DNA of 34,664 nucleotides from an uncultured bacterium (GTDB lineage: Bacteria; Patescibacteriota; Minisyncoccia; UBA6257; 2-01-FULL-56-20), in the NCBI GenBank assembly GCA_963844965.1, contig CAWJQC010000003.1, positions 1-34,664 of the forward strand. The letters run 5' to 3'. Both the position numbers and the translations under genes were made by a program. The notes under the pieces were generated by a model. That model had not been told where the DNA came from, ran no database searches, and saw only the letters and a program-made list of their open reading frames with translations. Below are positions 3,001 through 28,796 of this stretch, piece by piece (the stretch's first letter is position 1; every line of letters starts with the position of its first letter).

Positions 3001-4627
3001 ATTTATCACGTTACTTCCACCGCTTTCCGCACCGGCGCTTCTTCCACTTGTGAAACAGCCAATCCCACGACCGACAACCGCTGGTGCTACCTCGGAGTCG
3101 TCTCTTCCACTGGTTCCTGTGTGAGCGGCACGAATTACAACGAAACCGATACCGTTGCACTTTACTACTTCGCCGATTCCACGGGCAGCCAATCGCCGAC
3201 CTCAAGTTATCCCACGCAGGATTGGGTGGCTTACGCCGTGGCGGTGGACAAGGAGGGTGCGACATCCAGTGTCACTAACTCAACTTCCTCCAACGTGGAC
3301 GTTGTCGTCCTCACGGGCTTTAACGTTTCGCCCGCGTCCTCAACCTACGGCACGCTCCTCGTCGGCCAGAACACCAGCTCCACGAACCAAATCCACTATG
3401 TGAGCAACGCCGGCAATTCCTCAACAACCCTCGCCATATCCGGTACCGCCTTCAGGTGACGGTTTGGGACATTTCCTGGCAACGAGTTCCCAGCATTACG
3501 CGACTTCTTCCTTCACATTCGGCGGAGCGGAACAGCAGTTGAGTGATTCCTCGGCGACCGTGAGCGGTTTCAATACGATTCCGTCGCACATCAACGCGTC
3601 GCCAATCGTGCAGGCGTGGCAGACGAACCCAAATTCGCTGCCCGTTGCGCTTAATCATTACTCCGCCGTCGTTTACAACGGATATATTTATACGTTAGGT
3701 GGGGGTACCAATAATGTTTACTATGCTCCGATAAACTCCAATGGCACCATAGGCGTGTGGAAAACGAATCCGAACAATATGCCCGCTTCACTTATCTATA
3801 ACACGGCTGCCGTTGCCTATAACGGATACATATATTCAATCGGAGGCGAGGATAATGGAGTCGGCGTTAACACCTCCAGTGTTTTCTATGCTCAGATAAA
3901 CGCTTCAAGCACCGGCACGTGGTATAAAAATCCCAATTCCCTGCCTACGGCGCTGGAGTACAACTCGGCTGTCGTCTGGAATGGCTATATCTACAATCTC
4001 GGCGGCACCGCAAATACAGGCAACGGTAACGGAGGCACCACTACGGTTCTCTATGCCCAAATCAACACCTCCAGCACCGGCGCGTGGACGACAAATCCGA
4101 ATTCACTGCCGAGCGGACTGGCAGCTTTTGCTGCCGCCGCCTATAACGGCTATGTGTATGTTATCGGGGGATATGTTAATGGCAGCGGTCTCGCCTCCAC
4201 CGTCTATTATGCTCCGATAAACTCCGACCACACGCTTGGCGCCTTTCAGACGAACTCCAACTCTCTGCCGAGCGCACTTGATTTCCTCTCAGCCATCGCC
4301 TATAACGGATACCTCTATGTGATAGGAGGAGAAACCGGTTCCGGCGCTACCTCCTCGGTTTTCTACGCCGCGATAAATTCCACGGGGTCGGTCGGAGTAT
4401 GGCAAAATGCCGCCTCTCTTCCGGACTCAAACGAACAAAGCTTTGCCGTTGTCTCAAACGGCTATGCCTATCTCGTGGGCGGCAGTAACGGGACGAACAA
4501 CACCTCCAGCGTCTTCTATGTATCTCTGGACAACCGCCCGATCTACTGGGGCGCGACCGCCCCCTTGCGTTCCGCCGCCGGCAACTACCAGAGCACCGTA
4601 ACCTACACGGCGGTGTGGAGCCAATAA
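1..4627 (+). pseudogene. Kelch-like beta-propeller surface protein paralogue. It is 5'-truncated by the window edge and broken by at least 6 frameshifts. Its 3' part is rearranged, with a Kelch block inserted into the shared C-terminal domain.
   Basis: Frame 3 is open from nt 3 to 1055. ORFs then alternate frames (793-1215, 1280-1657, 1851-2393, 2390-2830, 2785-3459, 3464-4627). Each resembles consecutive segments of the paralogue at 5735-8999. Repeated 'SAVAYNGYIYTIGG...SVFYAQIN...GxW' units look like Kelch repeats. The segment 3464-4627 is intact and about 90% identical at nucleotide level to 6240-7140. Confidence 0.6.
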
Positions 4628-4630
4628 AAA

Positions 4631-4662
4631 AATTAACGACATCGCAAGTCGTTAATTTTTTT
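4631..4662 (+). terminator. Rho-independent terminator hairpin (aattaacgac / atcgcaa / gtcgttaatt) followed by a T7 run. It belongs to the TTAACGACATCGYAAGTCGTTAA palindrome family.
   Basis: Perfect 10-bp stem plus T-run directly after the TAA at 4625-4627. Confidence 0.6.
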
Positions 4663-4716
4663 ATAAGACCTATAGGTCCTATACGACTTATACGACCTAT
4701 AGGTCTTATAGGTCTT
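4663..4716. repeat. Tandem 8-9 bp units TATAGGTC / TATACGAC / TATAAGAC (array 1 of 5 around the 4HB gene).
   Basis: Direct reading: ataagacc tataggtcc tatacgac ttatacgac ctataggtc ttataggtc. Confidence 0.8.
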
Positions 4717-5479
4717 GTTTCTTTTTCTTCTCCCTCGCTTCTTTCAGAATTTTTTCTATCATCTCGTCGGTTTCTTTCTCAGCTTCTTTTTCTTTCGTCA
4801 AAATTTTCCTCAGCTTCTGTTCCCGCGGTTCGAAAATCGCGCCGTTTGCTTCATGCTCCGCTCTCACTGCTCTTATCTGCATGTCCAGAAGATAATTGGT
4901 TTGGTTGATAAGACAGATAAGGCAGTTTGCCGCCTCTTCGGGATTTTCAAGATAGGTCTTATAGGTCGTATAGGACTTATCAATCCTATCAATCCTATCA
5001 GTCCTATCAGTCCTATCAATCCTATCAGTCCTATCAGTCCTATCCGTCCTATCCGTCCTATCCGTCTTATAAACCAATTGCCGAACCGCAAGCGCCCTCG
5101 GGTTGTCCTTCTTCCAGATTTGGAAATTCCGCTGGCGCAGAAAATCGGAGTAATCTTCCAGCAGTTCTTCAAAGGAAGCCCGCGCGACGCCGAGAAGAAA
5201 AATTTCGGTTTTCGGCGAGTTCTTTCCGGCGGCTGCGCCCTCTACGATGTTTTGTTTTCCTGAACGTGCCGCCTGCATCATCTGGTCGCTTTGGCGCGTA
5301 AAATGATAAGTCGTATAGGTCTTATATGTCCTATCCGACCTATCCGTCTCATCGGTCTTATCCGACTTATCGAACCCGGACCCGCGGGGTTCAACGTACC
5401 GGCGGCAAAACTCCGCGGTCATGTCGCAAATTACGGTTGCCTGTTCGTAGGATTTCAAATTTTTGTAAGTGGGCGGCAT
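4706..5479 (-). CDS. Four-helix-bundle protein (PF05635-like, '23S rRNA intervening sequence protein' family) carrying two in-frame tandem-repeat insertions.
   Basis: The core reads 'QMMQAARSGKQNIVEGAAAGKNSPKTEIFLLGVARASFEELLEDY' and matches the 4HB motif 'QL.RS..S...NI.EG..R.S..EF..FL.IA.GS..E'. A 9-bp repeat GTCCTATCA x10 is translated in frame as TDRTDRTDR. Start is placed at Met33 (5479) because upstream codons lie inside a repeat array. Confidence 0.5.
   Translation of the reverse strand: MPPTYKNLKSYEQATVICDMTAEFCRRYVEPRGSGFDKSDKTDETDRSDRTYKTYTTYHFTRQSDQMMQAARSGKQNIVEGAAAGKNSPKTEIFLLGVARASFEELLEDYSDFLRQRNFQIWKKDNPRALAVRQLVYKTDRTDRTDRTDRTDRIDRTDRTDRIDRIDKSYTTYKTYLENPEEAANCLICLINQTNYLLDMQIRAVRAEHEANGAIFEPREQKLRKILTKEKEAEKETDEMIEKILKEAREKKKKQDL
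4953..5073. repeat. Tandem array of about 13 units of 9 bp (GTCCTATCA / GTCCTATCC / ATCCTATCA) plus TATAGGTC units, inside the 4HB ORF.
   Basis: Seen directly. Period 9, so the reading frame is preserved. Confidence 0.85.
5306..5376. repeat. Tandem 8-9 bp units (TATAGGTC / CTATCCGAC family), array 3, inside the 4HB ORF.
   Basis: Seen directly. Confidence 0.75.
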
Positions 5480-5500
5480 CGTTTCGGTTTTGGTTTTTTT

Positions 5501-5561
5501 ATGCGTCCCATGCGTCTTATAGGTCCTATAAGACCTATACGTCTTATAAGTCGTATAGTAG
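5501..5561. repeat. Tandem 8-9 bp units (ATGCGTCC / TATAGGTC / TATAAGAC), array 4.
   Basis: Seen directly. Confidence 0.75.
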
Positions 5562-5606
5562 ACCCGCCGGTACAACTTATCAACATCTCCAAAAACAACG
5601 GAGCAG

Positions 5607-5615
5607 TGTTAGAAT
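5607..5615 (+). promoter_or_regulatory. TGTTAGAAT extended -10-like element (one of 4 identical copies in the window).
   Basis: Exact 9-mer TGnTAnAAT upstream of the 5735 gene. The same 9-mer occurs at 9270, 9568 and 27544, each upstream of a + strand gene. Confidence 0.35.
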
Positions 5616-5654
5616 TAGAGAAAGCGGGCATCGCGGCCCGAGGTTTTTGGTATT

Positions 5655-5720
5655 AAGTCCTATGCGTCCTATAAGTTCTATTGGCCTTATAAGTCCTATG
5701 CGTCCTATAAGACCTATAAA
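5655..5720. repeat. Tandem 8-9 bp units (TCCTATGCG / TCCTATAAG), array 5.
   Basis: Seen directly. Confidence 0.75.
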
Positions 5721-5734
5721 AAACCGTTCGCATT

Positions 5735-8700
5735 ATGAATAAGCACTTTGCCCTTGCGCTCATAATCATTGCCTCCGCGATAGTCGTTGCCGGCGGCGTT
5801 GTCGGCGTCGTTTTGGGCGACAGCACGTCGCAGATGAACCTCGGGGTTTTGAACATAACGCCGCGGCGGCCGATACTGAATTATCCTGCGCCGAACTCAA
5901 CTATTTCGTACGCGGGCAGCACTTTTCAGATAACGGCGACGAAGCCCACGGGCGGCGGCAGTTACGTGCAGTACAAACAAGTGATTTATCAGAACGAGGC
6001 CTGCACGCAGGTCGTGCAGACAAACGACGAAACGGCGTCGCAAACCGGCTGGAGCGGCGAGAACGCTTCTGCGAGCGAGGCCTATGCCGCCGGAAACGCA
6101 ACCGGTTCTGCCGGTACCTTCACTTTACAGACGAACTTGGCGACCAATACCACTTACTGGTGGGGCGCGCAGGCCTACGACCCCGACACTGCGGGAAGCT
6201 GGGGCACGAGCACGCTCACGCGAGTGGACAACGCGTGGACTACGAACGCGAATTCCCTGCCGACCACACTTTCAATGTTCTATGCCGTTACTTACAATGG
6301 ATATATTTATGCGTTAGGAGGGTGCGCTAGCACTGTTTATTACGCTCCGATAAATTCCGGCGGCACTGTGGGTATATGGACGACGAATCCGAACAATATG
6401 CCTGCTTCACTTGGCAGTGACGTAGCCGCTGTCGCCTATAACGGATATATATATACAATCGGAGGGGGAGTTTGTGGCCCCAGTGTCAACACCACTACCA
6501 TTTTCTATGCCCAGATTAACGGCTCAAGCACTGGCCCGTGGCTCACAAACCCCAATCCGCTGCCCACAGCGCTTGAGCACAACTCAGCTGTCGTCTGGAA
6601 TGGCTATATCTACAATCTTGGTGGAAGCACATCAGTCGGTAACTGTGCCAATGGCACCACCACCGTCCTCTACGCCCAAATCAACGGCTCCAGCACCGGG
6701 GCGTGGCAGACAAATCCGAATTCGTTGCCCACCACCGTAACGTGCGCAGCCGCTGCCGTCTATAATGGCTACATATATGTGATTGGGGATGATGCCATAT
6801 ATTATTCTACTTCCAGTGTCTTCTACGCCCCGATAAACTCCGACCACACGGTTGGCGCCTTTCAGACAAACCCCAATTCCCTGCCGAGTGCGATTGGGGA
6901 CAACTTCGCCGTCGCCTATAACGGCTATATATATTTGATTGGGGGGGAGAATGCCGCTAGTGTTGCTACCTCCACCGTCCTCTACGCCGCGATAAATTCC
7001 ACAGGGTCGGTCGGTGTATGGCAAAATGCCGCCTCTCTTCCGAGCTTAAACAGATACGGCTCTGCCGTTGTCTCAAACGGCTATGCCTATCTTATGGGCG
7101 GCAATGACGGGACGAATGACACTTCCACTGTTCTCTATTCCCAAATCAACCAGCTCGGTTCCACCGCCGCCGAGGGCTGGATAAACAACTCCGCTCTCGC
7201 AAGTTCAATCTATCTGAACGATGCCCTTGCCTATAACGGCTACATTTACTCAACAGGAGGAACATCGGACGGCACGAACGGAACAACAACCGTGAATTAC
7301 GCCATGCTGAACTCCAACGGCACCCTGGGCAACTGGCAAACGACGGCAGCTCTTCCCGCGAACACCGTCCAGCACGGAGCATTCGCCTATACGAACTCAG
7401 GCGGCACGACCCTCCTCTATACAATAGGCGGCGGCACCACGGTAGGAGCTGCAGGAAACAAGGTGAACCAGGCGACGGTCAACACGAACGGCACCTTGGG
7501 AACCTGGAGCGCTGCCGTTTCGGCAAACCTTCCGGCAAACTACGAGAACAGCTTCACGGGAGCGGCGAACGGCTACGCCTATCTCGTGGGAGGGGATAAC
7601 GGCACGAATGCCACAAGCGCCGTCCTCTACGGCCTCATAAGCTCCACGGGTACTATCAAGAACTGGTCTTCAACGAACCCTCTTCCCGCTGCCGTAACGA
7701 ATCAGGGAGGCATAATCCTGAACAACGTCATTTACGACATCGGCGGCAGCACGGATATCGCGGCTGCGAACATCACGACTACCGTTAACTACGCTCCCAT
7801 CAATTCCAACGGTTCTGTCGCGAGCTGGACAGTGAGCACATCTCTGCCTGCTCCCATCATCCAGCCGGACGTTGAGACCTGGAACAACTTCATCTATGTC
7901 ATCGGCGGCTCGTCAACCGTGGCCTACGGAGGAGCGACGACAACGGTTCTCTACGCCGTTCCAGCCGGCAACCAAAGTAGCTCCGGCTTCATAGTCCAGT
8001 CCAGCGGCACCTTGTCGTCATGGCTTGCCGCCACCCCTCTTCCTTCTCCTCTTTACGAGGAGGGTTCGGCTGTAGCAGACGGCTATCTCTATACCGTGGG
8101 AGGCAAGAACTCTTCGGGAGCCACTACGACCGTTCAAAACACCGGACTTTATACTTCCTGCATAGCGTTCAATTCGGTGACGAACTACGCGCCGTCGGTT
8201 TCCGCGGTTTCCTTGAACGGCGGCAACGCGCTTACCCTGACGGCCAACGCCACGACGAGCTTCAGCATAAATTATTCCGTGACCGACCCGAACGGCTGTT
8301 CCAATATCGCGAGCGTAACCTCCACCGCCTTCCGCACGGGAGTCGCCGGTGCTTGCGCCACGGCGAATCCCGCGACCGACAACCGAAATTGCTACCTGAG
8401 TGTCGTCAACTCCACGAGTTCCTGCGCGGGCACGAACTACAACGAAACCGATACTGTCGCTCTTTATTATTTCGCCGATTCAACGGGTATCACTACCTCA
8501 AGTTACCCAACCCAGCACTGGGAGGCCTACGCCACGGTCTTGAGCAATTCGGGCTTGACCGCGAGCGCCACTTCTTCCAACGTGGACGTGAACGTCCTCT
8601 CCGCCATAAACGTGACGGAGCCACTTCCAGTGTCATTAATTATGGTGCTTTATCGCAAAACGCGAATACCGGTTTGTGAATCAGACAACGACGGTGCAGA

Positions 8701-8999
8701 ACGCCGGAAATTCTTCCACGACACTTCAGATTTATGCGTCGCAGGTTTTGACTTCCGGCACGAGCACAATACCGGCGGCCTACCAGCACTATGCGACTTC
8801 TTCCTTCACCTTTGGCGGCAACGAGCAGCAGCTTACGACAAGCACGAACCCCGCCTTCGTTCCCGGATTTGTACTCACCGTTCCCACGAGCACGGCTTCG
8901 GTCCAAAAATTGACATACTGGGGCGCTGGCACGCCGGCCGGCCAGGCGGGCGGCAGTTATCAGGGCACGACTATGTTCGCGGCAGGGTTTTCACAATAG
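5735..8999 (+). CDS. Large secreted surface protein. It has an N-terminal signal anchor, an Ig/FN-like module, about 20 Kelch-like propeller repeats and the shared roughly 240-aa C-terminal domain. It needs two -1 frame changes near 8617 and 8677.
   Basis: ORF 5735-9058 runs into out-of-frame low-complexity text after 'SAINVT'. The conserved C-terminal sequence continues in the other two frames as 'GATSSVINYGALSQNANTGL' and then in ORF 8676-8999 as 'NQTTTVQNAGNSSTTLQIY...WGAGTPAGQAGGSYQGTTMFAAGFSQ*'. These match the C-termini of the 12570 and 16027 genes. Confidence 0.65.
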
Positions 9000-9002
9000 T
9001 TA

Positions 9003-9236
9003 CAAAGTCAAAATTCAAAAGGCAAAAGTCAAAAGTTAAAGTAAAAAATCAAAAATGAAATACTTTTTACATTTGACATGCAATTTTGACCTTTGAGTTT
9101 TAACTTTTGACATTATCTGAGCTGACTTTTGATTTTTGCCTTTTGACCCCGAGCCCTGCGTACTGAAACAAGAACGCGACGACTTTTGACATTTGACCTA
9201 TACTTTTGACTTTTGAATTTTGCCTTTTGACCTTAA
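9003..9236. repeat. Inverted arrays of the 8-mer GTCAAAAG / CTTTTGAC. There are about 6 units on the + arm (9003-9060) and about 10 on the - arm (9066-9236).
   Basis: Seen directly. A large imperfect palindrome centred near 9062, with no gene inside. Confidence 0.75.
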
Positions 9237-9674: not shown

Positions 9675-10349
9675 GTGAACAAAACAACGGGCAGAATAAA
9701 AGAAATTGCGCGGAACAAAAAGGCAAAAATCGGGCTCTTAATCTGCGCCGTGATTGCGGCAATATTATCCGGCTACCTCATAGTCAAAGCTCTCTCGTTT
9801 GTTGATAATTTCACCACCACCAATTACGTGTCAAGCGTGTGGCACACGCAAGTGGCGACTTCTTCGGGCGTTGCCGAATTGCAGGCGAAAACTTGCAATA
9901 CTATTTCCACCTCAACCTGGTTTTGCTCCGCCACTTCCACCTCCATATGTTTGAACGACCTTGGCGACGGCGACTACATTATAGTTGCCCAAGCCGATAG
10001 CGGCCACCTGGCGTGGAAAAATGACGATACTGCCTGCTCTCGGCCGCAATGCGAGCAAGACGGCCCAGTGGACGGAAACAATCTGGTTGCCGACAACACG
10101 GTAAATTTCAGCGATTACGCGGCGCGGGCTGCCTGCCAAGCGATTGGCGGCCGTTTGCCGACGCGAAACGAATTGGGGTGCTTGTACAACAACTCATCAA
10201 CGTTCGGCGGTAACTTTGCTGCGGACTTCTACTGGTCTTCTGCCGAGGACGATGCCGCGGACGCCTACTACGTGTATTTCGCGAATGGCGGCGTGAGCAG
10301 CTACGGCAAGACCTACGCCTACTACGTCCGCTGCGTCCAAGGGTGGTAA
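9675..10349 (+). CDS. DGR target protein. It has an N-terminal membrane anchor, a Cys-rich region and a C-terminal DUF1566/FGE-like (C-type-lectin fold) domain that carries the variable repeat.
   Basis: GTG start. The C-terminus reads '...LPTRNELGCLYNN...FAADFYWSSAEDDAADAYYVYFANGGVSSYGKTYAYYVRCVQGW*', the classic DUF1566-type ending. Its last 128 nt align to the TR with A-only mismatches. Confidence 0.8.
   Translation: MNKTTGRIKEIARNKKAKIGLLICAVIAAILSGYLIVKALSFVDNFTTTNYVSSVWHTQVATSSGVAELQAKTCNTISTSTWFCSATSTSICLNDLGDGDYIIVAQADSGHLAWKNDDTACSRPQCEQDGPVDGNNLVADNTVNFSDYAARAACQAIGGRLPTRNELGCLYNNSSTFGGNFAADFYWSSAEDDAADAYYVYFANGGVSSYGKTYAYYVRCVQGW
10215..10342 (+). other. DGR variable repeat (VR).
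   Basis: 128 nt, colinear with the TR at 11061-11188 with no indels. There are 14 mismatches, all at positions where the TR has A (TR AAC codons read as TTC, GAC, TAC, AGC or GGC in the VR). A shared GC-rich 3' end 'cgtccgctgcgtccaagg' could be the IMH (initiation of mutagenic homing) element. Confidence 0.85.
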
Positions 10350-10392
10350 GATTTGGAATTTGGGCATTTGAGGATTTGTGGATTGGGTTGTA

Positions 10393-10460
10393 GTTGGTAG
10401 CTTGTAGCTGGTAGGTAGTAGGGAATTCCTACAAGCTAAAAAGCTACAAGCTAAAAAGCT
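10393..10460. repeat. Hairpin-forming repeat (GTAGCTTGTAGCTGGTAGG ... CTACAAGCTAAAAAGCTACAAGCTAAAAAG) on the left flank of the 4HB gene.
   Basis: 'agcttgtag' and 'ctacaagct' are reverse complements around gaattc. A similar copy sits on the right flank. Confidence 0.7.
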
Positions 10461-10462
10461 GA

Positions 10463-10825
10463 ATGAAAATAAATTCATATACAGACCTGATTGTTTGGCA
10501 AAAAGCAGTTGATTTAGTTGTGGAAGTTTATAATCTGACTGAGAAATTTTCCAAAAGCGAACTTTTTGGTCTAACTTCACAAATGAGACGGGCAGCAGTT
10601 TCTATTCCGTCTAATATTGCCGAGGGCAGGAGGAGAGGAACAAGAAAAGATTTTTGCCATTTTTTGGTTATCGCTTTTGGTTCAGGAGGAGAATTGGAAA
10701 CCCAAATAATAATTGCCAAGAAACTAAACTTTATAAAAATAGGCGAGTATTCAAAGGTCGATTTGTTATTAGACGAGGTTATGCGCATATTGAACGTCAT
10801 GATTCATAACCTGCAGGTTCATTAG
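10463..10825 (+). CDS. Four-helix-bundle protein (PF05635 / '23S rRNA IVS protein' family).
   Basis: 'DLIVWQKAVDLVVEVYNLTEKFSKSELFGLTSQMRRAAVSIPSNIAEG...ELETQIIIAKKL' is a near-consensus member. Confidence 0.8.
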   Translation: MKINSYTDLIVWQKAVDLVVEVYNLTEKFSKSELFGLTSQMRRAAVSIPSNIAEGRRRGTRKDFCHFLVIAFGSGGELETQIIIAKKLNFIKIGEYSKVDLLLDEVMRILNVMIHNLQVH

Positions 10826-10885
10826 CTGGTAGGTCGTAGCCTGTAGGAATTTACAAGCTAAAAAGCTACTAGCTACAAACTAATT
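10826..10885. repeat. Right-flank copy of the GGTAGG...CTACAAGCTAAAAAGCTAC hairpin repeat.
   Basis: ctggtaggtcgtagcctgtaggaatttacaagctaaaaagctactagctacaaac. Confidence 0.7.
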
Positions 10886-11060
10886 CGGCCGGAGTCTTTA
10901 ATCACGCAGCGGCTCAAGCCGCGCGGGTTAAAGAGAGTTTGCTGATATAAACCACGATTTCGCCGCCCCGTTAGGGAGCTGTGAATGTTGGGCTAAACTA
11001 ACAGGGCATTGTTGGCAAGCAGCTGTTTTACGGCTGCTGAGACAGTCCAGCGCGAAATAT

Positions 11061-11188
11061 TTTGCTGCGGACAACTACTGGTCTTCTGCCGAGAACGATG
11101 CCGCGAACGCCTACAACGTGAATTTCACGAATGGCGGCGTGAACAACAACAACAAGACCAACGCCAACTACGTCCGCTGCGTCCAAGG
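11061..11188 (+). other. DGR template repeat (TR).
   Basis: AAC-rich (reads as AADNYWSSAENDAANAYNVNFTNGGVNNNNKTNANYVRCVQG*). Every difference from the VR is at a TR adenine. Confidence 0.85.
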
Positions 11189-11227
11189 TTGATTTATAAA
11201 AGCGAAAATCGCCGATATTTCAAAAAA

Positions 11228-11584
11228 ATGCGCAACACCGAGCGATTGCCTCTTTATCACAAGACATACGGACTAATCAAGCATTTATACGGCGTGATCA
11301 GGAGCTTTCCCAAGGAATATAAATATTCTATGGGGAGCGAAATCATGAATCTTTCGTGGAAATGCCTTGACCTTATTATTGAAGCGAACGCCTACCCCAA
11401 TGCTCAAAAGAGCGTGAAAGTCGCCGAATTAAGCGCGGCATACGATAAATTAAAAATGCGGCTGCGGATGAGCCAGGAAATCAACCTGACATCAGCCGGC
11501 CAATTCGCTCATCTTGAAGAAAATTACATGCTGGAAATAGGGAAAATGATTGGCGGCTGGAAAAAATGGGCGGGGGCAGAATAA
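11228..11584 (+). CDS. avd: Avd (DGR accessory variability determinant).
   Basis: About 118 aa, placed between TR and RT. It matches the bAvd pattern (Y..L..L..V.R.FPK.YKY..G..I....W.CLDLII.A...K.......LS...D.L...LR......I......H.E...LEIGKMIGGWKK) and has the C-terminal GGW motif. Confidence 0.7.
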   Translation: MRNTERLPLYHKTYGLIKHLYGVIRSFPKEYKYSMGSEIMNLSWKCLDLIIEANAYPNAQKSVKVAELSAAYDKLKMRLRMSQEINLTSAGQFAHLEENYMLEIGKMIGGWKKWAGAE

Positions 11585-11620
11585 ATTTCTAATTTCTAAT
11601 TGACCTAATTGATTTAAATA
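11584..11620. repeat. Left inverted-repeat arm (aatttctaatttctaattgacctaatt...) of a MITE-like element.
   Basis: Its reverse complement recurs at 11863-11900. The same family, without cargo, is at 28797-28887. Confidence 0.65.
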
Positions 11621-11833
11621 ATGTTCAATTCCAAAATCCCAAACAAAGATAAATATGATTTGGAAGAAAGAACCGCAAAATTCGGCGAAGAAGTTATCAG
11701 ATTTTGCCAAGAATTGCCCCAAAATGAAATAACCAGACCGATAATAAATCAGCTGATAAAATGCGCAAAATTATGGGTTGAAGCCAAAGAGTTAAATCTG
11801 ATTTTCAACGCAATCAACAATAAATTGAAATGA
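11621..11833 (+). CDS. Truncated 4HB-family gene fragment (N-terminal two-thirds only).
   Basis: 'YDLEERTAKFGEEVIRFCQELPQNEITRPIINQLI' matches the 'FDLEERL..FA..II.L...LPK......I..QL.RS' N-terminus of 4HB proteins. It lacks the C-terminal helices. Confidence 0.4.
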   Translation: MFNSKIPNKDKYDLEERTAKFGEEVIRFCQELPQNEITRPIINQLIKCAKLWVEAKELNLIFNAINNKLK

Positions 11834-11862
11834 CGCTTTTGGTTATTGGGATTTAGGATTTA

Positions 11863-11900
11863 TTTAGGTCAATTAGAGCAATTAGAATAATTAGAAATTA
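11863..11900. repeat. Right inverted-repeat arm (tttaggtcaattagagcaattagaataattagaaatta).
   Basis: Its reverse complement matches the left arm at 11584-11620. Confidence 0.65.
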
Positions 11901-11903
11901 CCC

Positions 11904-13040
11904 ATGGCCATCTTCACCTATGAAAACCTGTATCGCGCGTATCTTGACTGCCGGCGCAATAAAAGAAAAACGATTAACGCGCTGAAATTTGAGATTGATT
12001 TAGAAAAGAATTTGTCTTTACTGCTTGAAGAATTAACGAGCCGTCGATACCAGCCAGGCCGCTCGATTTGTTCGTGGTCAAATATCCCCAGCCGCGGGAA
12101 ATATTCGCGGCTGATTTCCGCGACAGGATAGTGCACCATCTGCTGGTCGGCCAAATTCTGGCCGAAAGCGAAAAAAGCTTTTTTTACAACAGTTTCGCTT
12201 GCCGCAAAGGAAAAGGTACGCACAAGGCGGTCGGACTTTTGAGAAGATACCTGAAAAGCGCTTCCAGAAGCGGAAAAGAGAAAATATTTTACCTGCAATT
12301 GGATATCGGAAGTTTTTTCGTGTCAATCCGGCACCGCGTTTTATTTTCCATTTTCAGCGAATTTGTCGGCAAATTGAACCGGACCGAAGAATGGAAACAA
12401 GAAATTTTATGGCTGGCTGAAAAAATCATTTTTTACGAACCAGCCAAAAATTGCGAAATAAGAGGCGATAAGAGCTTGCTCGCGCTGATACCGCCGCACA
12501 AGTCGCTTTTTAACGCGCCGCCAGAACGGACTGCCGATTGGCAATTACACCTCGCAATTTTTCGCCAATATGTATCTGAACCGATTGGATTATTTCACCA
12601 AGCAGACGCTTAAGGAAAAATTTTATATCAGATATGTTGACGACATTGTGATTTTAGGAAAAAGCGCCGGCGCGCTTAAAGGTCTGATTCCCGAAATTAA
12701 CAGGTTTTTGAAAAAAGAATTGGAGATTGAACTGAATCTTGACAAGATCAAGTTCAAAAACGTTTCGGCGGGCATAGATTTTCTGGGCTATTTTGTGAAG
12801 CCGGATTACACGCTTGTCCGCCGCCGGGTGGTTAAGAATTGCAAGGAAAAAATCCGCCCTGCCCCCGAAGTTTCGAAAAAATTGGTCTCGCAAGCCAATT
12901 CTTATCTGGGGCATTTTATCCACGCCGCGAGCTACGGATTGAGAAAAATGATTTCAGAGAGGTTAATCAAAGCGGACAATTCTATACATTTTAGCAATGG
13001 CTATAAATCGATATTCGCAATAATTGGCGGGCAAAGAAAA
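11904..13040 (+). CDS. DGR-type reverse transcriptase. It is frameshifted (frame 0, then +2 near 12065, then back to 0 near 12520) and read through in frame into the downstream surface-protein gene.
   Basis: It carries these DGR-RT motifs:
- 'YQPGRSI / FVVKYPQPREIFAADFRDRIVHHLL'
- 'SFACRKGKGTHKAV'
- 'IFYLQLDIGSFF'
- 'GLPIGNYTSQFFANMYLNRLDYF' (found in frame 0)
- 'YIRYVDDIVILG' (the YxDD box)
- C-terminal 'SQANSYLGHFIHAASYGLRKMI'. Confidence 0.8.
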
Positions 13041-14975
13041 ATAATCAAAACGGCGGTTGCCGCGGCAGTTCTGCTCGCGGGCTTTTCGTTTGCTCATTCC
13101 GCCTCCGCCGCTTATTTCAAGACCGGCTCTTTGGTTTCCGCTAACCTCTTGGACGGCTTGACCAACGTCGGCGCGATTACCCAATTTAACGCCACAACTT
13201 CCATCGCGGCGGGCACTTCGGTAAGCGTCCAATTTTCCCGCAATAAACTTACCTGGTACAGCGCCTCCGGCACGGCGTTCGCCACAAGTTCGCTTTCGGA
13301 CGGCGCGAACAGCATTGACTTGTCGGCGTTGGGGTGGACCGGCCCGATTTTTTATTACAAGCTGCAATTCGCGACGAATGATTCAAGCATCACTCCGACT
13401 GTATCGGGCGTGGCCGTGAATTACAATTACAGCTCCGGACCGACGTACGAGTATTTCGGGCAAGGGTCTTTGGTTTCCGCCAATGTGCTTGACGGTCATA
13501 CGGACGTCGGCGCAATTACCGGATTTTCCGCTTCAACTACCGTGCCGGCCAGCACGACAATAACAGTCCAGTTTTCGCGCGACAAATTGGTTTGGTACAA
13601 CCATTCCGGCGTGGCGTACGCCGAAGACAGCTTGTCCAACGGCTCCAATGTCGTTAATTTGTCCGCTTTGAATTGGACCGGTCCGCTGATTTATTATAAA
13701 TTGCATTTTACCACAAGCGATGTCGGCCAGACGGCGGCTATTTCATCGGCCGAGATTGATTATTCAGCCGGTTCCGGCTCGGTATATTTCAAGCAAGGAA
13801 CATTGGTTTCAACAAATCTTTTGGCTGGCGGAGGGACGCTTAGCGGAAACGAATTGTTCGGCTATAACATTTCTTCTTTGCCTTCTGGAACAACGGTTCA
13901 GGTCCAATTCAGCACCAGTAGCGCCAATTGGTTCAGTTCCACTGGCACCGCTTGGGCGTGGGACACCTTGTCCAGCGGCAGCCACCTTACCGCTTCAACC
14001 GCGATTAACTTGTCCGCGCTTGGCTGGACCGGCGCCAGTTTTTATTACAAATTAGAATTCACAACGACTGATGCCGGCACAACTCCGACAGTCGCTCAAA
14101 TATCGCTCTTTACGCCGGGAGCGCTGCCCATCGTTACGGTTCTGATGACGGTCGTCTCAAGCAGCGCTCCCATCGTATCCGCCGTATCGGTGAACGGCGG
14201 CAATTCCATCACGCTCACGCCCGCGACAACGACCCCGATCAGCGTCAATTTCACGGTTACGGATTATTCCGGCTGTTCAAACGTTTTCACGAGCGGCAAC
14301 GTTACGACCACGCTTTACCGCATGGGCGTCGGGAGTTCGTGCGTGGCGGACAACCGCAACTGCTACAGGACTTCCTCGCAAACCAACAATTGCTCGGGCA
14401 GCGGTGCCAACGCCACGGCAACTTTGAATCTTTACTATTTCGCCGATTCCACCGGCAGCCAATCGCCGACCTCAAGTTATCCATCCGACCACTGGCAGGC
14501 CTATGTGCAGGCGCTGGACGGGACGGCGAACGCCACGGGCACCGCCACGTCAACCGTGAACGACGTTAATGTCTTGACGGCCATCACCGTTACAACTTCT
14601 TCCATCAACTACGGCACGATGTCGCCGAATGCGACGACCTCGGCCGCGAGCGACCAGCTCGCGACCGTGCAGAACGTCGGCAATTCGTCCACGACTTTGA
14701 AAATTTCCGGCACGGCGCTCGTAATGTCCTCGCCTTACGACGCGTTCGCAACGTCCAGCCAGCATTACGCCACATCCACTTTCCAGTGGAACGCCAGCGG
14801 CCCGGAGCAGCAACTTCAGCAAACACAAACAACGGTTCCGGGATTTTCTCTGACTACCCCCACCTCCACGAGTGCCGTGAGCGGTAACACTTATCGGGGC
14901 GTGCAAATTCCCGGCAGCGCGCAAAGCGGCGTGCACGTGGGGATGATAACGTTCAGCTCAAATTGGAGCCAATAA
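13041..14975 (+). CDS. Secreted surface protein with three tandem repeats of about 100 aa and the shared C-terminal domain. The start is uncertain because there is no canonical in-frame start codon.
   Basis: A signal-peptide-like 'KIIKTAVAAAVLLAGFSFAHSASA' is followed by three units of 'YFKxGSLVSxNLLDG...VQFS..KL.WY..SG.A.....LS.GSN...LSAL.WTGP..YYKL.FTT.D'. The tail is 'VSAVSVNGGN...DNRNCY...LYYFADSTGSQSPTSSYP...TVQNVGNSSTTL...QHYATSTF...WSQ*'. Confidence 0.55.
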   Translation: MIKTAVAAAVLLAGFSFAHSASAAYFKTGSLVSANLLDGLTNVGAITQFNATTSIAAGTSVSVQFSRNKLTWYSASGTAFATSSLSDGANSIDLSALGWTGPIFYYKLQFATNDSSITPTVSGVAVNYNYSSGPTYEYFGQGSLVSANVLDGHTDVGAITGFSASTTVPASTTITVQFSRDKLVWYNHSGVAYAEDSLSNGSNVVNLSALNWTGPLIYYKLHFTTSDVGQTAAISSAEIDYSAGSGSVYFKQGTLVSTNLLAGGGTLSGNELFGYNISSLPSGTTVQVQFSTSSANWFSSTGTAWAWDTLSSGSHLTASTAINLSALGWTGASFYYKLEFTTTDAGTTPTVAQISLFTPGALPIVTVLMTVVSSSAPIVSAVSVNGGNSITLTPATTTPISVNFTVTDYSGCSNVFTSGNVTTTLYRMGVGSSCVADNRNCYRTSSQTNNCSGSGANATATLNLYYFADSTGSQSPTSSYPSDHWQAYVQALDGTANATGTATSTVNDVNVLTAITVTTSSINYGTMSPNATTSAASDQLATVQNVGNSSTTLKISGTALVMSSPYDAFATSSQHYATSTFQWNASGPEQQLQQTQTTVPGFSLTTPTSTSAVSGNTYRGVQIPGSAQSGVHVGMITFSSNWSQ

Positions 14976-14983: not shown

Positions 14984-15036
14984 TTAACGACATCGTAAGT
15001 CATTAATTAATAATTAACGATGTCGTAAGTCGTTAA
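14984..15036. repeat. Two REP-like palindromes (TTAACGACATCGTAAGTCATTAA and TTAACGATGTCGTAAGTCGTTAA) between convergent genes.
   Basis: Seen directly. They are the same family as the hairpin at 4631-4657 and the palindrome at 15752-15774. Confidence 0.75.
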
Positions 15037-15722
15037 TCGAGCGAAACGTTTTTGACCTCTTCTATTTCAATATCCTTAAGCCACTGTTTTATATTTTTTT
15101 CGTATTCCGCGGGGCCGCCGAAAAATTTCATAAGAAATTCTCTATTAGTAACCGACGGAAAATTTTTCTTGCCGAGATAATCAAGGTGGCTTGACCAGCG
15201 GTAATTATCCAAGAATTTCATCGCTTCTCTATGGTTCTTGATCTCGCGTTCGCGCCATTCCGGCGCCGCGAGGTCCAGCGGGTTCACGTGTATGTAATAG
15301 GGGATATGGTTGAAATGCGATTCGTTCTTTATCACCATGGATTTGTACCTGCCTTCAAATAACGTCCCCTTCCTTTCGTATTTCTGATTGAAATATTTTG
15401 CGTATCCCACGTTGATTTTTTTCATAAACGCCGTGATAGCTCCATCCGTGCGCGGGGAAAGAAGGAGATGATAGTGGTTGGGCATTAGACAAAACGCGTA
15501 TATATCAACCAAGAGTTTTCTTGGTTCTCTTGGCTTTGATTTGCCGCCAATATAACGACTTGCGACATCGTTAGATTGGTTGAATCTATAAAAAGCGTTA
15601 TTTACCCTGTTTTGGTCGTTAAATTCAAAAAGATCGTGGATAAACCTCAAATAATCCTGTTTATCAAGGAAGATTTTGCGTTTATCCACGCCCCTGTTCA
15701 GTGTGTGGTAGACATCAGCCAT
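15033..15722 (-). CDS. REP-associated tyrosine transposase (RAYT), a Y1 HUH transposase of the IS200 type.
   Basis: HuH motif 'CLMPNHYHLLL', then 'GAITAFMKKINVGYAKYFNQKYERKGTLFEGRYKS', then 'YYIHVNPL'. REP-like palindromes flank it on both sides. Confidence 0.7.
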   Translation of the reverse strand: MADVYHTLNRGVDKRKIFLDKQDYLRFIHDLFEFNDQNRVNNAFYRFNQSNDVASRYIGGKSKPREPRKLLVDIYAFCLMPNHYHLLLSPRTDGAITAFMKKINVGYAKYFNQKYERKGTLFEGRYKSMVIKNESHFNHIPYYIHVNPLDLAAPEWREREIKNHREAMKFLDNYRWSSHLDYLGKKNFPSVTNREFLMKFFGGPAEYEKNIKQWLKDIEIEEVKNVSLD

Positions 15723-15751: not shown

Positions 15752-15774
15752 CTAACGATGTCGCAAGTCGTTAA
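15752..15774. repeat. REP-like palindrome CTAACGATGTCGCAAGTCGTTAA upstream of the RAYT gene.
   Basis: Seen directly. Confidence 0.7.
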
Positions 15775-17139: not shown

Positions 17140-17242
17140 AAAAAGCACGGAATTTGTTCATTAACTGATTAGCGAATTGCGGATTAAAGGTCAATTTTAA
17201 TTTATTAATACGTTAATCCGTTAGTTTATCCGTTAACCGATA

Positions 17243-18146
17243 ATGAAGAGGAAGTTTTTATACATTCTTTTGCTTGGGGGTACGCTTGCCGTCACTTTGC
17301 CGAGCTTTGCTTCGGCGGCTTTCGGCGTTTCACCGCCGTTCGTCAATGCCACGCACCTAATGCCGGGCGTAACGTATTCCCAGGTTGTTTACCTCGTTCA
17401 AGACAAGCCGGATGAGGATTTGGGCATTCACGTCGCGCTAGATATTGCGGACCGTGTCCGTTCGTGGATTTCCATAGATAAGGGTTTTGACTTTGTCATT
17501 CCAAAAGGGACGCGGCAATTTCCCATTAATGTGATAGTGACCGTTCCCAAGAACGCCGAGCGCGTGTCGTATGGGGGCAATCTGATAGTAACAAGCGAGC
17601 CGTCCGCAAAGGGGCAGGTAACCATCGCCTTGGGCGCGAATATTTCCATAAATCTGACTGTCGGCAACGATATTTACGAAAAGTACAGCGTGCCGCTCAT
17701 AAACTTTTTGGATATTGAGGAAGGATGGAATCCGAAAATAGACATCAGGTTCGTGAACGACGGCAACGTGCCTGAAAGCCTGGGCGGCGCGACTTTTGAA
17801 GTCTACGACCGTTTTGACTCCGTGCGTCTCGCTTTTATCCAGAAGACAAGCGGTTTTCCGGAGGTAGAACCTTTTACCACGGACGAATATACCATTGAGT
17901 TTCCTCTGGATTTGCATCTTGGACAAGGGCAGTATTGGGGGAGTGCCGTGCTTTATGACAAAGGCAACGCGATTTTAGCCACCCAAAGGACTGTTTTCAA
18001 CGTCCTCCCGCCCGGCGCTATCGGGGGGGACAAACGCGAAGATCATGACCTACCTGAAGGCCAACTGGATGTTTTACGCTATCGGCGCAGCCGTGCTTAT
18101 CATCTCGGGTTTCGTTCTCTGGAGGAAGAAAAAGCGCGTCGTGTAA
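17243..18146 (+). CDS. Secreted protein with a C-terminal membrane anchor. It has a frameshift in a G7 homopolymer at 18023-18029.
   Basis: Signal peptide 'MKRKFLYILLLGGTLAVTLPSFASA'. After the G7 run the other frame gives a textbook C-terminal anchor 'WMFYAIGAAVLIISGFVLWRKKKRVV*', ending at 18146. Confidence 0.6.
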
Positions 18147-18167
18147 TTTGTTAGTTTTTTGTTTTTT

Positions 18168-18237
18168 ATTAACGAGTTAACGAGTTAACGGGTTTTTTGT
18201 TATTTTTATAACTCGTTAACCCTTTAACTCGTTAACT
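18168..18237. repeat. GTTAAC-based palindromic repeats (TTAACGAGTTAACGAGTTAACGGG ... AACTCGTTAACCCTTTAACTCGTTAAC).
   Basis: Inverted copies that could form a terminator-like hairpin. The family recurs at 20720-20888, 21541-21612, 23915-23975 and 27419-27500. Confidence 0.7.
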
Positions 18238-18355
18238 GACTAATAAAATAATTTTTTAAGTAAAGTTAACTCCCTAACTCGTATTTTTAATTAGCGTATA
18301 AAGGAGCACGGATTGGTGGTAAAATTAGGAAAAATATCTCAAAGAACGTAACGGA

Positions 18356-19330
18356 ATGAAATTGCGAAATAAAACTTTTTTGCCGTCGCTCGTCGCATTT
18401 GCGCCAGCTTTTTCTATTTTCTATTTTCTATTTTCTATTTTCTACCCGGTATACGCGGACAATAGCGTCAACGTCAGCACGACATTTGTTTTGGCTCCGA
18501 CAACGATCGTTCTCACCCAAAACTCGTACAGATGGTATGACAATATAGATGCCCTGACCCCCAGTAATCCGCTTACCGCTGGGGAAAGTTCTCCGACCTC
18601 AACGCCGGCAGGCGGGACAGTCCTGCGTTTGCGGATGAACATAGTGGACAGCGGCCTTGGCATTGGCGCCGGAGCAACCTTCAAGCTTCAATACGCGAAT
18701 TCCACATCTGGAAGCTGGACCGATATCAGCACGTCCACCGCTTGGGTTCTTTACGATAATCCCTCGGTTGCCGATGGGCAGGTAATAGTCACGACAGTTT
18801 TGGCTAGTTCTAACATGGGGGAAAGTTACTGTGAGTCAAATCCGACTGCGGCAATGCCAAGCCCGATACTCCAGGGGCAAAGCGGGGAGTGGGATTGGGT
18901 GGTCGCCAATAATTACGCCGACACGGCGAGCAACTGGTTTTTCCGGATGGTCTATTCTTCAAGCACGGAGCTTGATAACTATTCTGGCTATCCGGAATTA
19001 ACCGCGGTGGTGCCTCCATCCCCGCCGACGCCGCCCGCTCCGTCCGGCGGAGGGGGCGGGGGAGTAGTGGGCGTGGGGGCTGGTCAAACATTGTTGCCAA
19101 GCCAGCCCGCGACCACGACGCCGTACCTGCCGATTCCGCCGCCCTTCGTCCCGCCCGCAATGCAGTGCATTGACTATAACGGCGACAACCGCGTTGACAT
19201 GATTGACCTATCCATTCTGCTCTATCATTACGGCGAAACCGGCCCGGATATCGGCTGTTTTGATTTGAATCACGACGGCATTGTGGATTTCCCGGATATT
19301 TCCATTCTGATGTATTATTGGACTTCGTAA
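18356..19330 (+). CDS. Secreted protein with a jelly-roll-like central domain, a Pro/Gly-rich linker and a C-terminal dockerin-like domain of 2 EF-hand-like repeats.
   Basis: Signal peptide. Dockerin pattern 'CIDYNGDNRVDMIDLSILLYHYG...CFDLNHDGIVDFPDISILMYYW'. The central domain (RLRMNIV...FKLQYANSTSGSW...NWFFRMV) is homologous to the protein encoded at 3-480 of this window. Confidence 0.55.
   Translation: MKLRNKTFLPSLVAFAPAFSIFYFLFSIFYPVYADNSVNVSTTFVLAPTTIVLTQNSYRWYDNIDALTPSNPLTAGESSPTSTPAGGTVLRLRMNIVDSGLGIGAGATFKLQYANSTSGSWTDISTSTAWVLYDNPSVADGQVIVTTVLASSNMGESYCESNPTAAMPSPILQGQSGEWDWVVANNYADTASNWFFRMVYSSSTELDNYSGYPELTAVVPPSPPTPPAPSGGGGGGVVGVGAGQTLLPSQPATTTPYLPIPPPFVPPAMQCIDYNGDNRVDMIDLSILLYHYGETGPDIGCFDLNHDGIVDFPDISILMYYWTS
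18410..18444 (+). repeat. Heptanucleotide repeat TTTTCTA x5 inside the signal-peptide coding region.
   Basis: Seen directly. It encodes FSIFYFLFSIFY. A 7-bp unit is not a multiple of 3. Confidence 0.85.
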
Positions 19331-19332
19331 TA

Positions 19333-19393
19333 ATCCGCTAATCAACGCTAACAAACATAATCCGCTAATAGACGCTAATCATAAGACGCTAAT
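19333..19393. repeat. About 5 units of CGCTAAT(C/A)A immediately upstream of the GxxExxY gene.
   Basis: Seen directly. Confidence 0.65.
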
Positions 19394-19807
19394 ATGAAAA
19401 AAATTATAGAAGATCTAATTTATAAAGATTTGTCTTTCAAAATACATGGCGCGGCTATTGAAGTGCGTAGGGATTTTGGAGCAGGGCATAAAGAGAAGTT
19501 ATACCAACAGGCTCTTGCCGCAGAATTAGACAGGCGCGGTATAAAATTTGAAAGAGAGAAAGCCATCAAAATTTATTCGCCAAAAGATGGCAAGTTTGTC
19601 GGCCTCTATCGGCCAGATTTTGTCGTGGAAAACAAGATAATTGTTGAAACAAAAGTAGAAACATTTGTGAGACAGGATGAAATAAAAAGAATATATGATT
19701 ATTTGAGGAATAGTGAGTACGAGCTTGCTTATCTGGTCAATTTTGCTTCGCCGCAACTATACGTAAGAAGGATAGTTTATACAAATAAATATAAATCAAA
19801 AATCGGT
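19394..19807 (+). CDS. GxxExxY protein (PD-(D/E)XK nuclease superfamily). It has no stop codon of its own and runs in frame into the next gene.
   Basis: 'DLIYKDLSFKIHGAAIEVRRDFGAGHKEKLYQQAL...YRPDFVVENKIIVETKV...YLVNF' contains G-HK-E-KL-Y, the family signature. It is related to the ORF at 24870-25313. Confidence 0.6.
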
Positions 19808-20695
19808 ATGAAAATTGCAATACTATTCTTGGCGTCTATTGGCTTATTATTAGCGGATATTAGCGGCGTACGGGCCGCTTCGCAGTCGCTTTATTTCTCG
19901 GCGCCTTCGGGAACCATCGCCGTCGGAAGCGAATTTCCGGTCAAAATACTGATCGATTCCGACCAGCCGCTTAACGCCTATGTCGTGACTTTTTCCTACG
20001 ATCCGGGCGTGCTCACGATTGTGGGTTTTGACAACGGCAAGTCAATCATAGATGTTTGGCAGGGGCAGCCGGCCGTTTCCGAAAACGGTTCCGTCGGCTT
20101 GCGCGGCGGCAGCGTCACCCCGTTCAGCGGGAAAGGCGGTAACATCATTACCGTCAATTTCCGGGCGGTGGGAGAAGGAGAGCCGATGCTCGCGTTCGGC
20201 AACTCATCGTTTTATATGGCGAACGGCAAAGGCACGAAAGTTGTTCCGCAAACCGCCGATCTGAAGTTTCAAATTCTTTCGGCCGGCGCCGTCACTTCAA
20301 CACTTCCGGTTTACGAGGAGGCATCGGATATCGCGCCGCCGACCATAAAATATCTGTCTCTCGTCCAGGATCCGTTCAACAGCGGGCAAAAACTTCTGAG
20401 CTTTATGGTTTCGGATCCCGACTCCGGTATCAGGGAGACTCTGGTGCGTACGCGTTCACTCCTCCTCTGGAGCGACTGGATTCCGGCGCAAAACCCGACC
20501 GCGATTCCATTATCCGCCTGGTCCATCGGCTTCAGAGCCATTGATAACAGAGGAAATATTTCGGAAAGAACGCTTTACAACTTTTCGGCGTTTTTGCGTC
20601 CCGAAGCGTTGGGCGTCGCGGCGCTCTTCATTATATTTTTAGTTATCATCGGCTTTATTATAGTAAAGATTAAAAAAGGTCGTTCCGTATCATAG
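19808..20695 (+). CDS. Secreted protein with a cohesin-like N-terminal domain and a C-terminal TM anchor.
   Basis: ATG at 19808 is followed by the signal peptide 'MKIAILFLASIGLLLADISGVRA'. The motif 'AYVVTFSYDPGVLTIVGF' resembles the cohesin 'F.YDP.VL' core. The C-terminus 'LGVAALFIIFLVIIGFIIVKIKK' is a membrane anchor. Confidence 0.45.
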   Translation: MKIAILFLASIGLLLADISGVRAASQSLYFSAPSGTIAVGSEFPVKILIDSDQPLNAYVVTFSYDPGVLTIVGFDNGKSIIDVWQGQPAVSENGSVGLRGGSVTPFSGKGGNIITVNFRAVGEGEPMLAFGNSSFYMANGKGTKVVPQTADLKFQILSAGAVTSTLPVYEEASDIAPPTIKYLSLVQDPFNSGQKLLSFMVSDPDSGIRETLVRTRSLLLWSDWIPAQNPTAIPLSAWSIGFRAIDNRGNISERTLYNFSAFLRPEALGVAALFIIFLVIIGFIIVKIKKGRSVS

Positions 20696-20719
20696 TTATT
20701 GGTTATTATCGGTTGCTCG

Positions 20720-20888
20720 GTTAACGAGTTAACTTCTTTTCTTAACCGGTTGGTCGGTTATTGCGGTTAACGAGTTCGCGAGTTAACGAGTTAAAATCCA
20801 AACCCGTTAACTCGTTAACACGTTAACTCGCCAACTACATAACTGTTTGTTCGATAAATTAAACTCGTTAACACGTTAACTCGTTAAT
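20720..20888. repeat. Cluster of GTTAACGAGTTAAC-type palindromic repeats, about 10 units in both orientations.
   Basis: Seen directly. Fills the whole intergenic region upstream of sodA. Confidence 0.75.
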
Positions 20889-20914
20889 AAGTAATTATCA
20901 AGTTAATAAAAATC

Positions 20915-21538: not shown

Positions 21539-21540
21539 AG

Positions 21541-21612: not shown

Positions 21613-21683
21613 ATTCATTAACGTGGCCACTTGTTTGGATTGGACAGATTATGGCTTGTTCACAGCAAGAGCGGCGCCCTTAG

Positions 21684-21692: not shown

Positions 21693-21699
21693 ATAAGGG

Positions 21700-28792: not shown

Positions 28793-28796
28793 ATGA

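Follow-up and report, generated by a model that had tools for sequence, protein, structure and literature searches.

Intervening sequences that carry an S23p open reading frame (ORF) have been known since the early 1990s, and their origin and mobility, like the role of the encoded protein, are still open (PMC4990558). That of Coxiella measures 428 nt and holds a decaying S23p ORF inside a 28-bp terminal stem, within which RNase III cuts (PMC4990558). Genes annotated as 23S_rRNA_IVP have also been found wedged within cas operons (PMC3936711), and their position between cas genes looks like the same junction-wedging behaviour as that described here. We analysed a contig of 34,664 nt from an uncultured bacterium of the Patescibacteriota (CAWJQC010000003.1, hereafter the window), in which two related hairpin elements lie between protein-coding genes. 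Copy 1 separates the avd and reverse transcriptase (RT) genes of a diversity-generating retroelement (DGR) and surrounds the remnant of a four-helix-bundle (4HB) gene, while copy 2 is gene-less and occupies the spacer between ctpA and rplI. With a probability of about 70%, both sites are copies of one family of intervening-sequence-type selfish cassettes residing outside rRNA.

Of the systems described so far, the 23S rRNA intervening sequence with an S23p ORF, known from Leptospira and Coxiella burnetii, comes closest. The gene family is common to both (PF05635/TIGR02436), the window contributing a 65%-identical remnant, and the sizes are alike, 428-444 nt in Coxiella (PMC4990558) and 440-490 bp for the full-length elements considered here. 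In both cases complementary termini give rise to a long stem around the ORF, the DNA is AT-rich relative to the host, the ORF often decays, ORF-less versions occur and the distribution is sporadic. The differences concern location and termini. The present copies lie between protein genes and not in an rRNA helix, the window being devoid of rRNA, and in their arms units of 7 or 9 nt with an invariant core follow one another, whereas the intervening sequence has a simple 28-bp inverted repeat.

Copy 1 has a G+C content of 30%, copy 2 of 24% and the window of 51%. Copy 1 and its neighbours are arranged as follows.

11246-11584, plus strand: avd of the DGR, flanking and outside the element; the terminal unit TAAATTTC begins with its TAA stop codon.
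11585-11903, plus strand: copy 1, whole element, a 319-nt AT-rich insertion between the avd stop and RT start codons.
11584-11621, plus strand: left arm of copy 1, made of the units TAAATTTC, TAATTTC, TAATTGACC and TAATTGATT, followed by an inner arm that reaches the ATG.
11621-11833, plus strand: 4HB (TIGR02436 / 23S_rRNA_IVP) gene remnant of 70 aa, identified by alignment to intact proteins and by DNA alignment to the element L190.
11838-11900, plus strand: right arm of copy 1, an inner ATTGGG/ATTTAGG part and then the AATTAG-type units GGTCAATTAG, AGCAATTAG, AATAATTAG and AAATT.
11904-12970, plus strand: RT of the DGR, flanking and outside the element, frameshifted twice and lacking its own stop codon.

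The initial annotation had noticed an arm of about 35 bp and its reverse complement on the two sides of ORF 11621-11833, and an inverted-repeat search and the predicted fold both agree with this. The search returns arms of 50 nt at 11594-11643 and 11838-11887, 72% complementary, which surround the 70-aa ORF. When the 336 nt from 11575 to 11910 are folded as RNA, 11584-11621 pairs with approximately 11860-11899, and the energy of -79.9 kcal/mol (z = -5.1) is not reached by any of 100 shuffled sequences. The left arm contains stop codons in all three frames.

Taken alone, the 70-aa ORF matches no Pfam or NCBIfam model and so lies below the TIGR02436 cut-off. It is 65% identical to the intact protein used as a reference (L039), and intact proteins encoded beside the same arm in other genomes are 68-69% identical to each other. 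Two such relatives score 65 (the L039 copy) and 58 bits with TIGR02436, above the cut-off of 24 bits; the intact relatives also match PDB entry 2RLD and carry PF05635. Compared with the complete L190 element, the DNA of copy 1 is collinear and 77-79% identical save for one in-frame deletion of 156 nt, and its ORF is without 52 internal residues, among them the region of the SxxxNxxE signature. Judged from these alignments, ORF 11621-11833 is clearly the remnant of a 4HB gene, recognisable solely by comparison with intact members. Avd and the copy 1 fragment have a four-helix-bundle fold family in common, but the fragment belongs to another subfamily (YDLEERTAKFGE...) and matches neither the bAvd nor the DivGenRetAVD model.

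From the ctpA stop (28792) to the rplI ATG (28893) the spacer measures 100 nt, all of it taken up by copy 2.

27572-28792, plus strand: ctpA, S41 C-terminal processing peptidase, flanking gene.
28793-28892, plus strand: copy 2, whole element, a gene-less 100-nt hairpin that is the entire ctpA-rplI spacer.
28793-28826, plus strand: left arm of copy 2, made of ATGAC, TAATTTC, TAATTGACC, TAATTACTC and TAATG; the left inner arm is absent.
28836-28857, plus strand: right inner arm remnant of copy 2, TTTTGAGGTTGGGATTTATTTGG, homologous to 11840-11868 of copy 1 and without a left partner.
28851-28887, plus strand: right arm of copy 2, made of GGAAATTAG, ATATTAG and AAATTAGGAATT.
28893-29339, plus strand: rplI, ribosomal protein L9, flanking gene.

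The hairpin folds with -24.1 kcal/mol (z = -3.2). As in copy 1, the left arm has stop codons in all three frames, and at both sites the TAA of the host gene is the first triplet of the terminal unit. The right arm contains an AGGA located 10 nt 5' of the rplI ATG.

The two sites belong to the same family. Positions 11589-11610 and 28797-28818 have one and the same 22-mer, CTAATTTCTAATTGACCTAATT, with 0.00 chance matches expected, which bears out the earlier observation that the arms of copy 1 recur in the ctpA-rplI spacer; the hairpin there spans all of its 100 nt. Poor arm similarity on proper alignment had been named as grounds for abandoning that link, yet both halves of the two copies align well above shuffled sequences, the left halves with a score of 58 (shuffles 21.8 +/- 4.1) and the right halves with 53 (shuffles 27.4 +/- 4.9). 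Chained CTAATT units occur at these two sites only in the 34.7-kb window (6 matches, 0.01 expected). Logan assemblies, probably of the same sample as the window, match both sites base for base (L212, over 989 nt, and L120). It is true that the arms consist of short AT-rich repeats, which break assemblies, and that contig L212 ends inside an arm. A chance similarity of AT-rich, low-complexity DNA or an assembly artefact is nevertheless hardly conceivable in view of the exact 22-nt match, extended arm alignments lying 5-9 standard deviations above shuffles, the identical sequence given by a second assembler and the hundreds of homologous elements in unrelated data sets.

The DGR that houses copy 1 spans 9675-12970. 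Its target gene (9675-10349) has an Lcl_C domain and contains the variable repeat at 10215-10345; the template repeat lies at 11061-11191, and 14 of the 15 mismatches between the two fall at template adenines. The frameshifts in the RT gene are located at about 12050-12068 and 12508-12528, and the gene runs into an ORF of 801 aa (12570-14975), while the RTs of related DGRs are intact and measure 376-397 aa. In five related DGRs (L127-L131) avd either overlaps RT by 4 nt or meets it as TAA-ATG, whereas in the window the two are 319 nt apart. Nothing lies between the two genes in L127-L131, and copy 1 was therefore rejected as a DGR component; it is foreign to the DGR that it interrupts. By uncoupling RT from avd, the insertion may have helped its host DGR to decay.

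A second, intact 4HB cassette is found in the same DGR at 10350-10890, between the target gene and the template repeat (gene at 10463-10825). It has a separate hairpin of GTAG-type/CTAC-type units on each side, so that its ends are direct hairpin copies and no single stem encloses it. An orphan array of ATTTGG-type units lies 3' of the stop codon of the target gene.

The ctpA-rplI synteny is kept in relatives, where the spacer measures 3 nt in L125 and L126 and 38 nt in L123. This comparison, which had been proposed in the initial annotation, shows copy 2 to be an insertion. The L122 spacer (46 nt) contains ATTTCTAATTTCTAAT, possibly a remnant of the element. In L121, the closest relative, the spacer is 210 nt long and holds a hairpin of a different unit family; the junction has thus been taken independently by different hairpin elements. 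From these alignments with relatives, copies 1 and 2 are both insertions.

The same comparison bears on the view that the hairpins are host regulatory structures, whether they end transcription, mark a site at which mRNA is processed or stabilised, or serve unrelated genes as a common AT-rich promoter or leader. Both copies do lie in transcribed spacers of co-directional genes and fold better than shuffles, and the AGGA of copy 2 has a suitable position for an rplI ribosome-binding site. However, promoter and terminator scans of both elements give no such site and no U tract, a result against the promoter or leader that had been considered earlier. Rfam returns nothing relevant for the whole window at gathering thresholds or for both sites at E values up to 1. 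The hairpin is missing from the same spacers in relatives, whose genes overlap or lie 3 nt apart, and copy 1 holds a decayed protein gene. A regulatory origin is accordingly quite improbable.

Further members of the family are numerous. An exact arm 21-mer occurs at at least 119 loci in GTDB species representatives; most of the loci listed have a partner arm within about 130 nt and are therefore gene-less hairpins. Among the matches listed, a 4HB ORF lies beside the arm at 8 loci, all of one subfamily, and about half of these ORFs are frameshifted or truncated. Conversely, scanning metagenomes with an alignment of this subfamily yields more than 546 relatives, of which 80 loci were kept for inspection of the arms; as they were chosen by protein similarity, intact genes are over-represented among them. 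TAATT-type arrays upstream and AATTA-type arrays downstream are visible by inspection at all 80. Under a strict chaining rule, at least two units (typically three) are present on both sides in 51 of the 64 loci with enough flank, the other 13 having variant cores or nested inserts. Clustered at 90% identity, the proteins of the subfamily form at least 7,982 clusters, and all of those with an informative organism name belong to the candidate phyla radiation. Several copies may reside in one genome. Indeed, one Saccharibacteria metagenome-assembled genome (MAG) has diverged gene-less copies in different contexts on five contigs. The proposal of a single inverted-repeat family with and without a 4HB ORF thus holds, the gene-less form being the commoner one and occurring several times per genome.

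Because the linkage holds from arm to gene as well as from gene to arm, arms and 4HB gene form one unit of inheritance. The distribution of these sequences indicates that the 4HB gene belongs to the element itself and is not captured cargo; the notion of a gene loaded into an initially empty element does not agree with the arrays found at all kept loci. The gene-less copies are most simply explained as deletion derivatives of the gene-carrying element. Copy 2 fits such an origin since it has kept the right inner arm and lost the left inner arm together with the ORF.

These data also serve to weigh the first model proposed for the locus, a classical miniature inverted-repeat transposable element (MITE) whose arms are the terminal inverted repeats of a DNA transposon, mobilized by a transposase acting in trans, with the 4HB gene as a passenger. 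The general description is apt. The copies are smaller than the approximately 600 bp usual for MITEs and have no functional coding capacity (copy 2 is 100 nt long, copy 1 is 319 nt long with a gene remnant); complementary arms give them folds more stable than those of shuffles; the 34.7-kb window has two copies, and diverged ones lie on the five Saccharibacteria contigs. Inverted arms, small size, an excess of gene-less over gene-carrying copies, several sites per genome and presence or absence at orthologous sites would all be expected, and an invariant core without covariation suits transposase binding sites. On the other hand, a transposase-encoding parent with the same ends is lacking among the full-length elements, which code only for a 4HB protein of about 120 aa. 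These arms accompany the subfamily at 80 of 80 kept loci, every arm-adjacent 4HB gene listed is of this subfamily, and each 4HB or GxxExxY subfamily has arms of its own, which is not expected of captured cargo. Neither a clear target-site duplication nor a transposase was found at or near the copies, and the only transposase-like gene of the window, a RAYT-like one at 15033-15722, is flanked by a different palindrome. What stands of the suggested non-autonomous, MITE-like family is thus its inverted repeats, gene-less copies and insertions, and what was not found is a clear target-site duplication and a transposase-encoding parent. A MITE proper is an unlikely explanation, albeit the least unlikely of the alternatives.

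One case might seem to favour it. Nine contigs of a single Bacteroidota MAG (L009, L024, L036, L055, L075, L081, L101, L112 and L118) end in the same truncated CTAATT cassette. They have an identical flank of 50-58 nt outside the arm, and their TAATTGACC units vary in number from 2 to 3. Since the repeat extends beyond the arm, this points to a recently amplified repeat larger than the cassette, with the cassette as its passenger.

The arms have a simple grammar. Each consists of 3-4 units of 7 or 9 nt, in which TAATT is followed by a linker ending in C; the period is 7 in 105 cases, 9 in 169 and 8 in 4. The linker vocabulary is small (TC, AACC, GACC, ATTC, GATC and a few others) and identical for left and right arms, but the linker order is not mirrored between the two. 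Termini across the family read AAATT...AATTT. The conserved feature is the core sequence in inverted arrays, not particular base pairs. Two contigs of one Bacteroidales MAG (L015 and L038) have identical flanks and a loop that differs by expansion of an ACAAAAT(G) unit, direct evidence that tandem expansion enlarges such arrays. Small G+C-rich palindromes such as CCTGCCTGCCGGCAGGCAGG are nested in some CTAATT arms (L053, L020, L037, L066, L202 and L206), and three Uhrbacteria contigs (L022, L050 and L093) have a conserved loop, GGTGGRGATACRCGCCTGT, and conserved flanks, with no Rfam match.

The elements are oriented with respect to their neighbours. Among 51 metagenome elements, the 4HB gene points the same way as its upstream neighbour in 36 cases versus 3, and as its downstream neighbour in 34 versus 9; the ends of the elements lie a few nt from the neighbouring stop and start codons, and the left arm has stop codons in all three frames in 36 of the 51 (boundaries and neighbours were assigned by simple rules on short flanks). 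Such a bias would be expected if a read-through RNA were the intermediate of a retro-mobile element, that is, if a hairpin-ended transcript were copied by an RT with an Avd-like 4HB cofactor and the cDNA integrated at operon junctions. The 4HB proteins are homologous to Avd, the RT cofactor of DGRs, and two 4HB cassettes lie inside the present DGR and others beside related DGRs. Yet most copies are not beside any RT, the RT of the window DGR is itself broken, and no poly-A, primer-binding or template-repeat-like feature was found in the elements. The orientation bias could arise equally from selection for expression or against antisense effects. We regard retro-mobility as improbable, more so than a MITE.

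Comparison with other small repeats does not provide a better match. The Correia/nemis elements of Neisseria and the enterobacterial repetitive intergenic consensus (ERIC) are likewise small, gene-less inverted repeats of transcribed spacers, present in many copies and forming hairpins in mRNA; nemis hairpins are RNase III substrates. In contrast to the present elements, they have defined 26-bp terminal repeats, are bordered by a TA duplication and are each confined to one genus or family. The full-length parent here codes for a 4HB protein and not for a transposase, no duplication is resolved in 36-37 ends, and the CTAATT family spans many candidate phyla and some Bacteroidota. Repetitive extragenic palindromes (REP), the mosaic elements built of them (BIME) and their associated tyrosine transposases (RAYT) also provide short intergenic palindromes in many spacers. 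The CTAATT elements differ in being 100-490 bp long, in carrying or deriving from a 4HB gene and in not being species-specific.

The window has a REP-like system of its own. The RAYT-like gene at 15033-15722 (minus strand) is accompanied by the palindrome TTAACGAC-N7-GTCGTTAA, of which the window holds four copies, with 0.01 expected.

4633-4655, 14984-15006, 15014-15036 and 15752-15774: copies of the REP-like palindrome.

This palindrome is unrelated to the CTAATT arms, and the elements were therefore rejected as REP sequences of the window's RAYT-like gene. Hairpins of GTTAACGA units fill six spacers from 17197 to 27504; they have a core in common with the RAYT-associated palindrome, and relative L121 has retained one of them in its orthologous LigT-ctpA spacer. 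Integron attC cassettes were likewise rejected, by inference, as there is no integrase and the elements stand singly between housekeeping genes.

The proposed intervening-sequence-type cassette may be pictured as follows. Copy 1 entered between the translationally coupled avd and RT genes and later lost 156 nt of its gene; copy 2, most simply a gene-less derivative, was inserted between ctpA and rplI. Judging from position and orientation, the cassette would be transcribed by read-through from the host operon, with stops in all three frames often provided by its left arm. In the transcript the arms are predicted to pair into a long stem, with computed energies of about -49 kcal/mol in copy 1, -22 in copy 2 and a mean of about -33 in intact elements, values that do not in themselves imply selection for pairing. 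By analogy with rRNA intervening sequences of the same gene family, RNase III would cut this stem, and cleavage would allow the element to be tolerated at operon junctions. Tentatively, a protein may recognise the invariant unit core and not the pairing. A candidate, equally tentative, is the 4HB protein encoded by intact copies, which would work in trans and on which gene-less copies would then depend.

A number of results weigh against this explanation. No covariation of pairs is apparent, since the mean energy of an arm with its own partner is -32.8 kcal/mol and that with the arm of another element -33.4 kcal/mol. Nor is the sense strand favoured in folding, it being the better of the two in 24 elements and the antisense strand in 25 (p = 0.94). 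With neither sense bias nor covariation, nothing here shows selection on an RNA stem. As to mobility, the search for target-site duplications that had been recommended for the boundaries revealed no consistent direct repeat in 36-37 aligned ends, although a duplicated AATT would look like a unit core; TA is present in only about half of the element flanks. No transposase, recombinase or RT linked to the family was found. Two abundant intact copies (P0193 and P0222, clusters with many contigs) each occupy a single conserved site across many samples, so that gene-carrying copies give no sign of recent movement. Six family loci with conserved flanks, tested for residence inside rRNA genes, show none, only tRNAs being present, and viral contigs (IMG/VR) contain neither a relative of the 4HB protein nor an exact arm. 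Finally, the phylum labels of some MAGs are unreliable. L018 and L083, like L043 and L106, share identical flanks and are labelled Patescibacteria and Gammaproteobacteria. Presence outside the candidate phyla depends mainly on L101, a contig with an RND pump, and on several Bacteroidota MAGs.

The cassette architecture itself is not confined to the CTAATT family. Other 4HB and GxxExxY genes have it too, each with a unit core of its own, and related proteins go with related cores. These subfamily-specific cores hint at sequence-specific recognition by a protein, possibly the encoded one. Several examples are present in the window. A 4HB protein with a TIGR04258 suffix domain is encoded at 4706-5575 (minus strand; cassette region 4633-5726), its gene being flanked by arrays of the 9-nt TATAGGTCC type and containing two further in-frame arrays of such units, translated as DKSDKTDETDRSDRTYKTY and YKTDRTDRTDRTDRTDRIDR... 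A GxxExxY (PD-(D/E)XK_3) gene at 24870-25313 (minus strand) lies between inverted TACGAAA arrays (24837-25295). A second GxxExxY domain forms the N-terminus of a 433-aa ORF (19394-20695), as if a cassette had been fused to the downstream gene. At 9004-9234, inverted arrays of the AAAGTCAAA type (51-nt arms, 78% complementary, 129 nt apart) have no ORF between them; they lie just 3' of the gene for a repeat protein of 1107 aa. The region 324-9058 consists of several large ORFs built of repeats of approximately 160 nt with AVAYNGYIY-type motifs, Kelch or beta-propeller-like, which have segments of 73-88% identity in common; a shared C-terminal segment recurs at 14397 and 16360.

A wider hypothesis can be formulated for these observations, though we hold it to be doubtful. 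The 4HB (Avd-like) and GxxExxY proteins would be sequence-specific end-binding factors of an undescribed class of mobile cassettes, the ends of which are arrays of subfamily-specific, protein-binding units of 7-9 nt. Within this class, the classical rRNA intervening sequences would be only a minority resident in rRNA, and the gene-less hairpins of candidate-phyla spacers would be non-autonomous derivatives moved in trans. If true, this would be the first function for S23p/4HB proteins.

The two window copies are ordinary decayed members of a large family which, outside rRNA, is apparently undescribed. In the literature, our coverage of which is incomplete, no description of non-rRNA, hairpin-ended 4HB cassettes or of arms built of unit arrays was found. 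The evidence suggests that the rRNA cases belong to a far larger population of hairpin-ended 4HB cassettes and gene-less derivatives, located at operon junctions in candidate-phyla and some other bacteria and endowed with subfamily-specific arm sequences. This also matters for annotation, as such cassettes divide operons, disrupt DGRs and have been taken for functional partners of cas genes, and their arms break metagenome assemblies.

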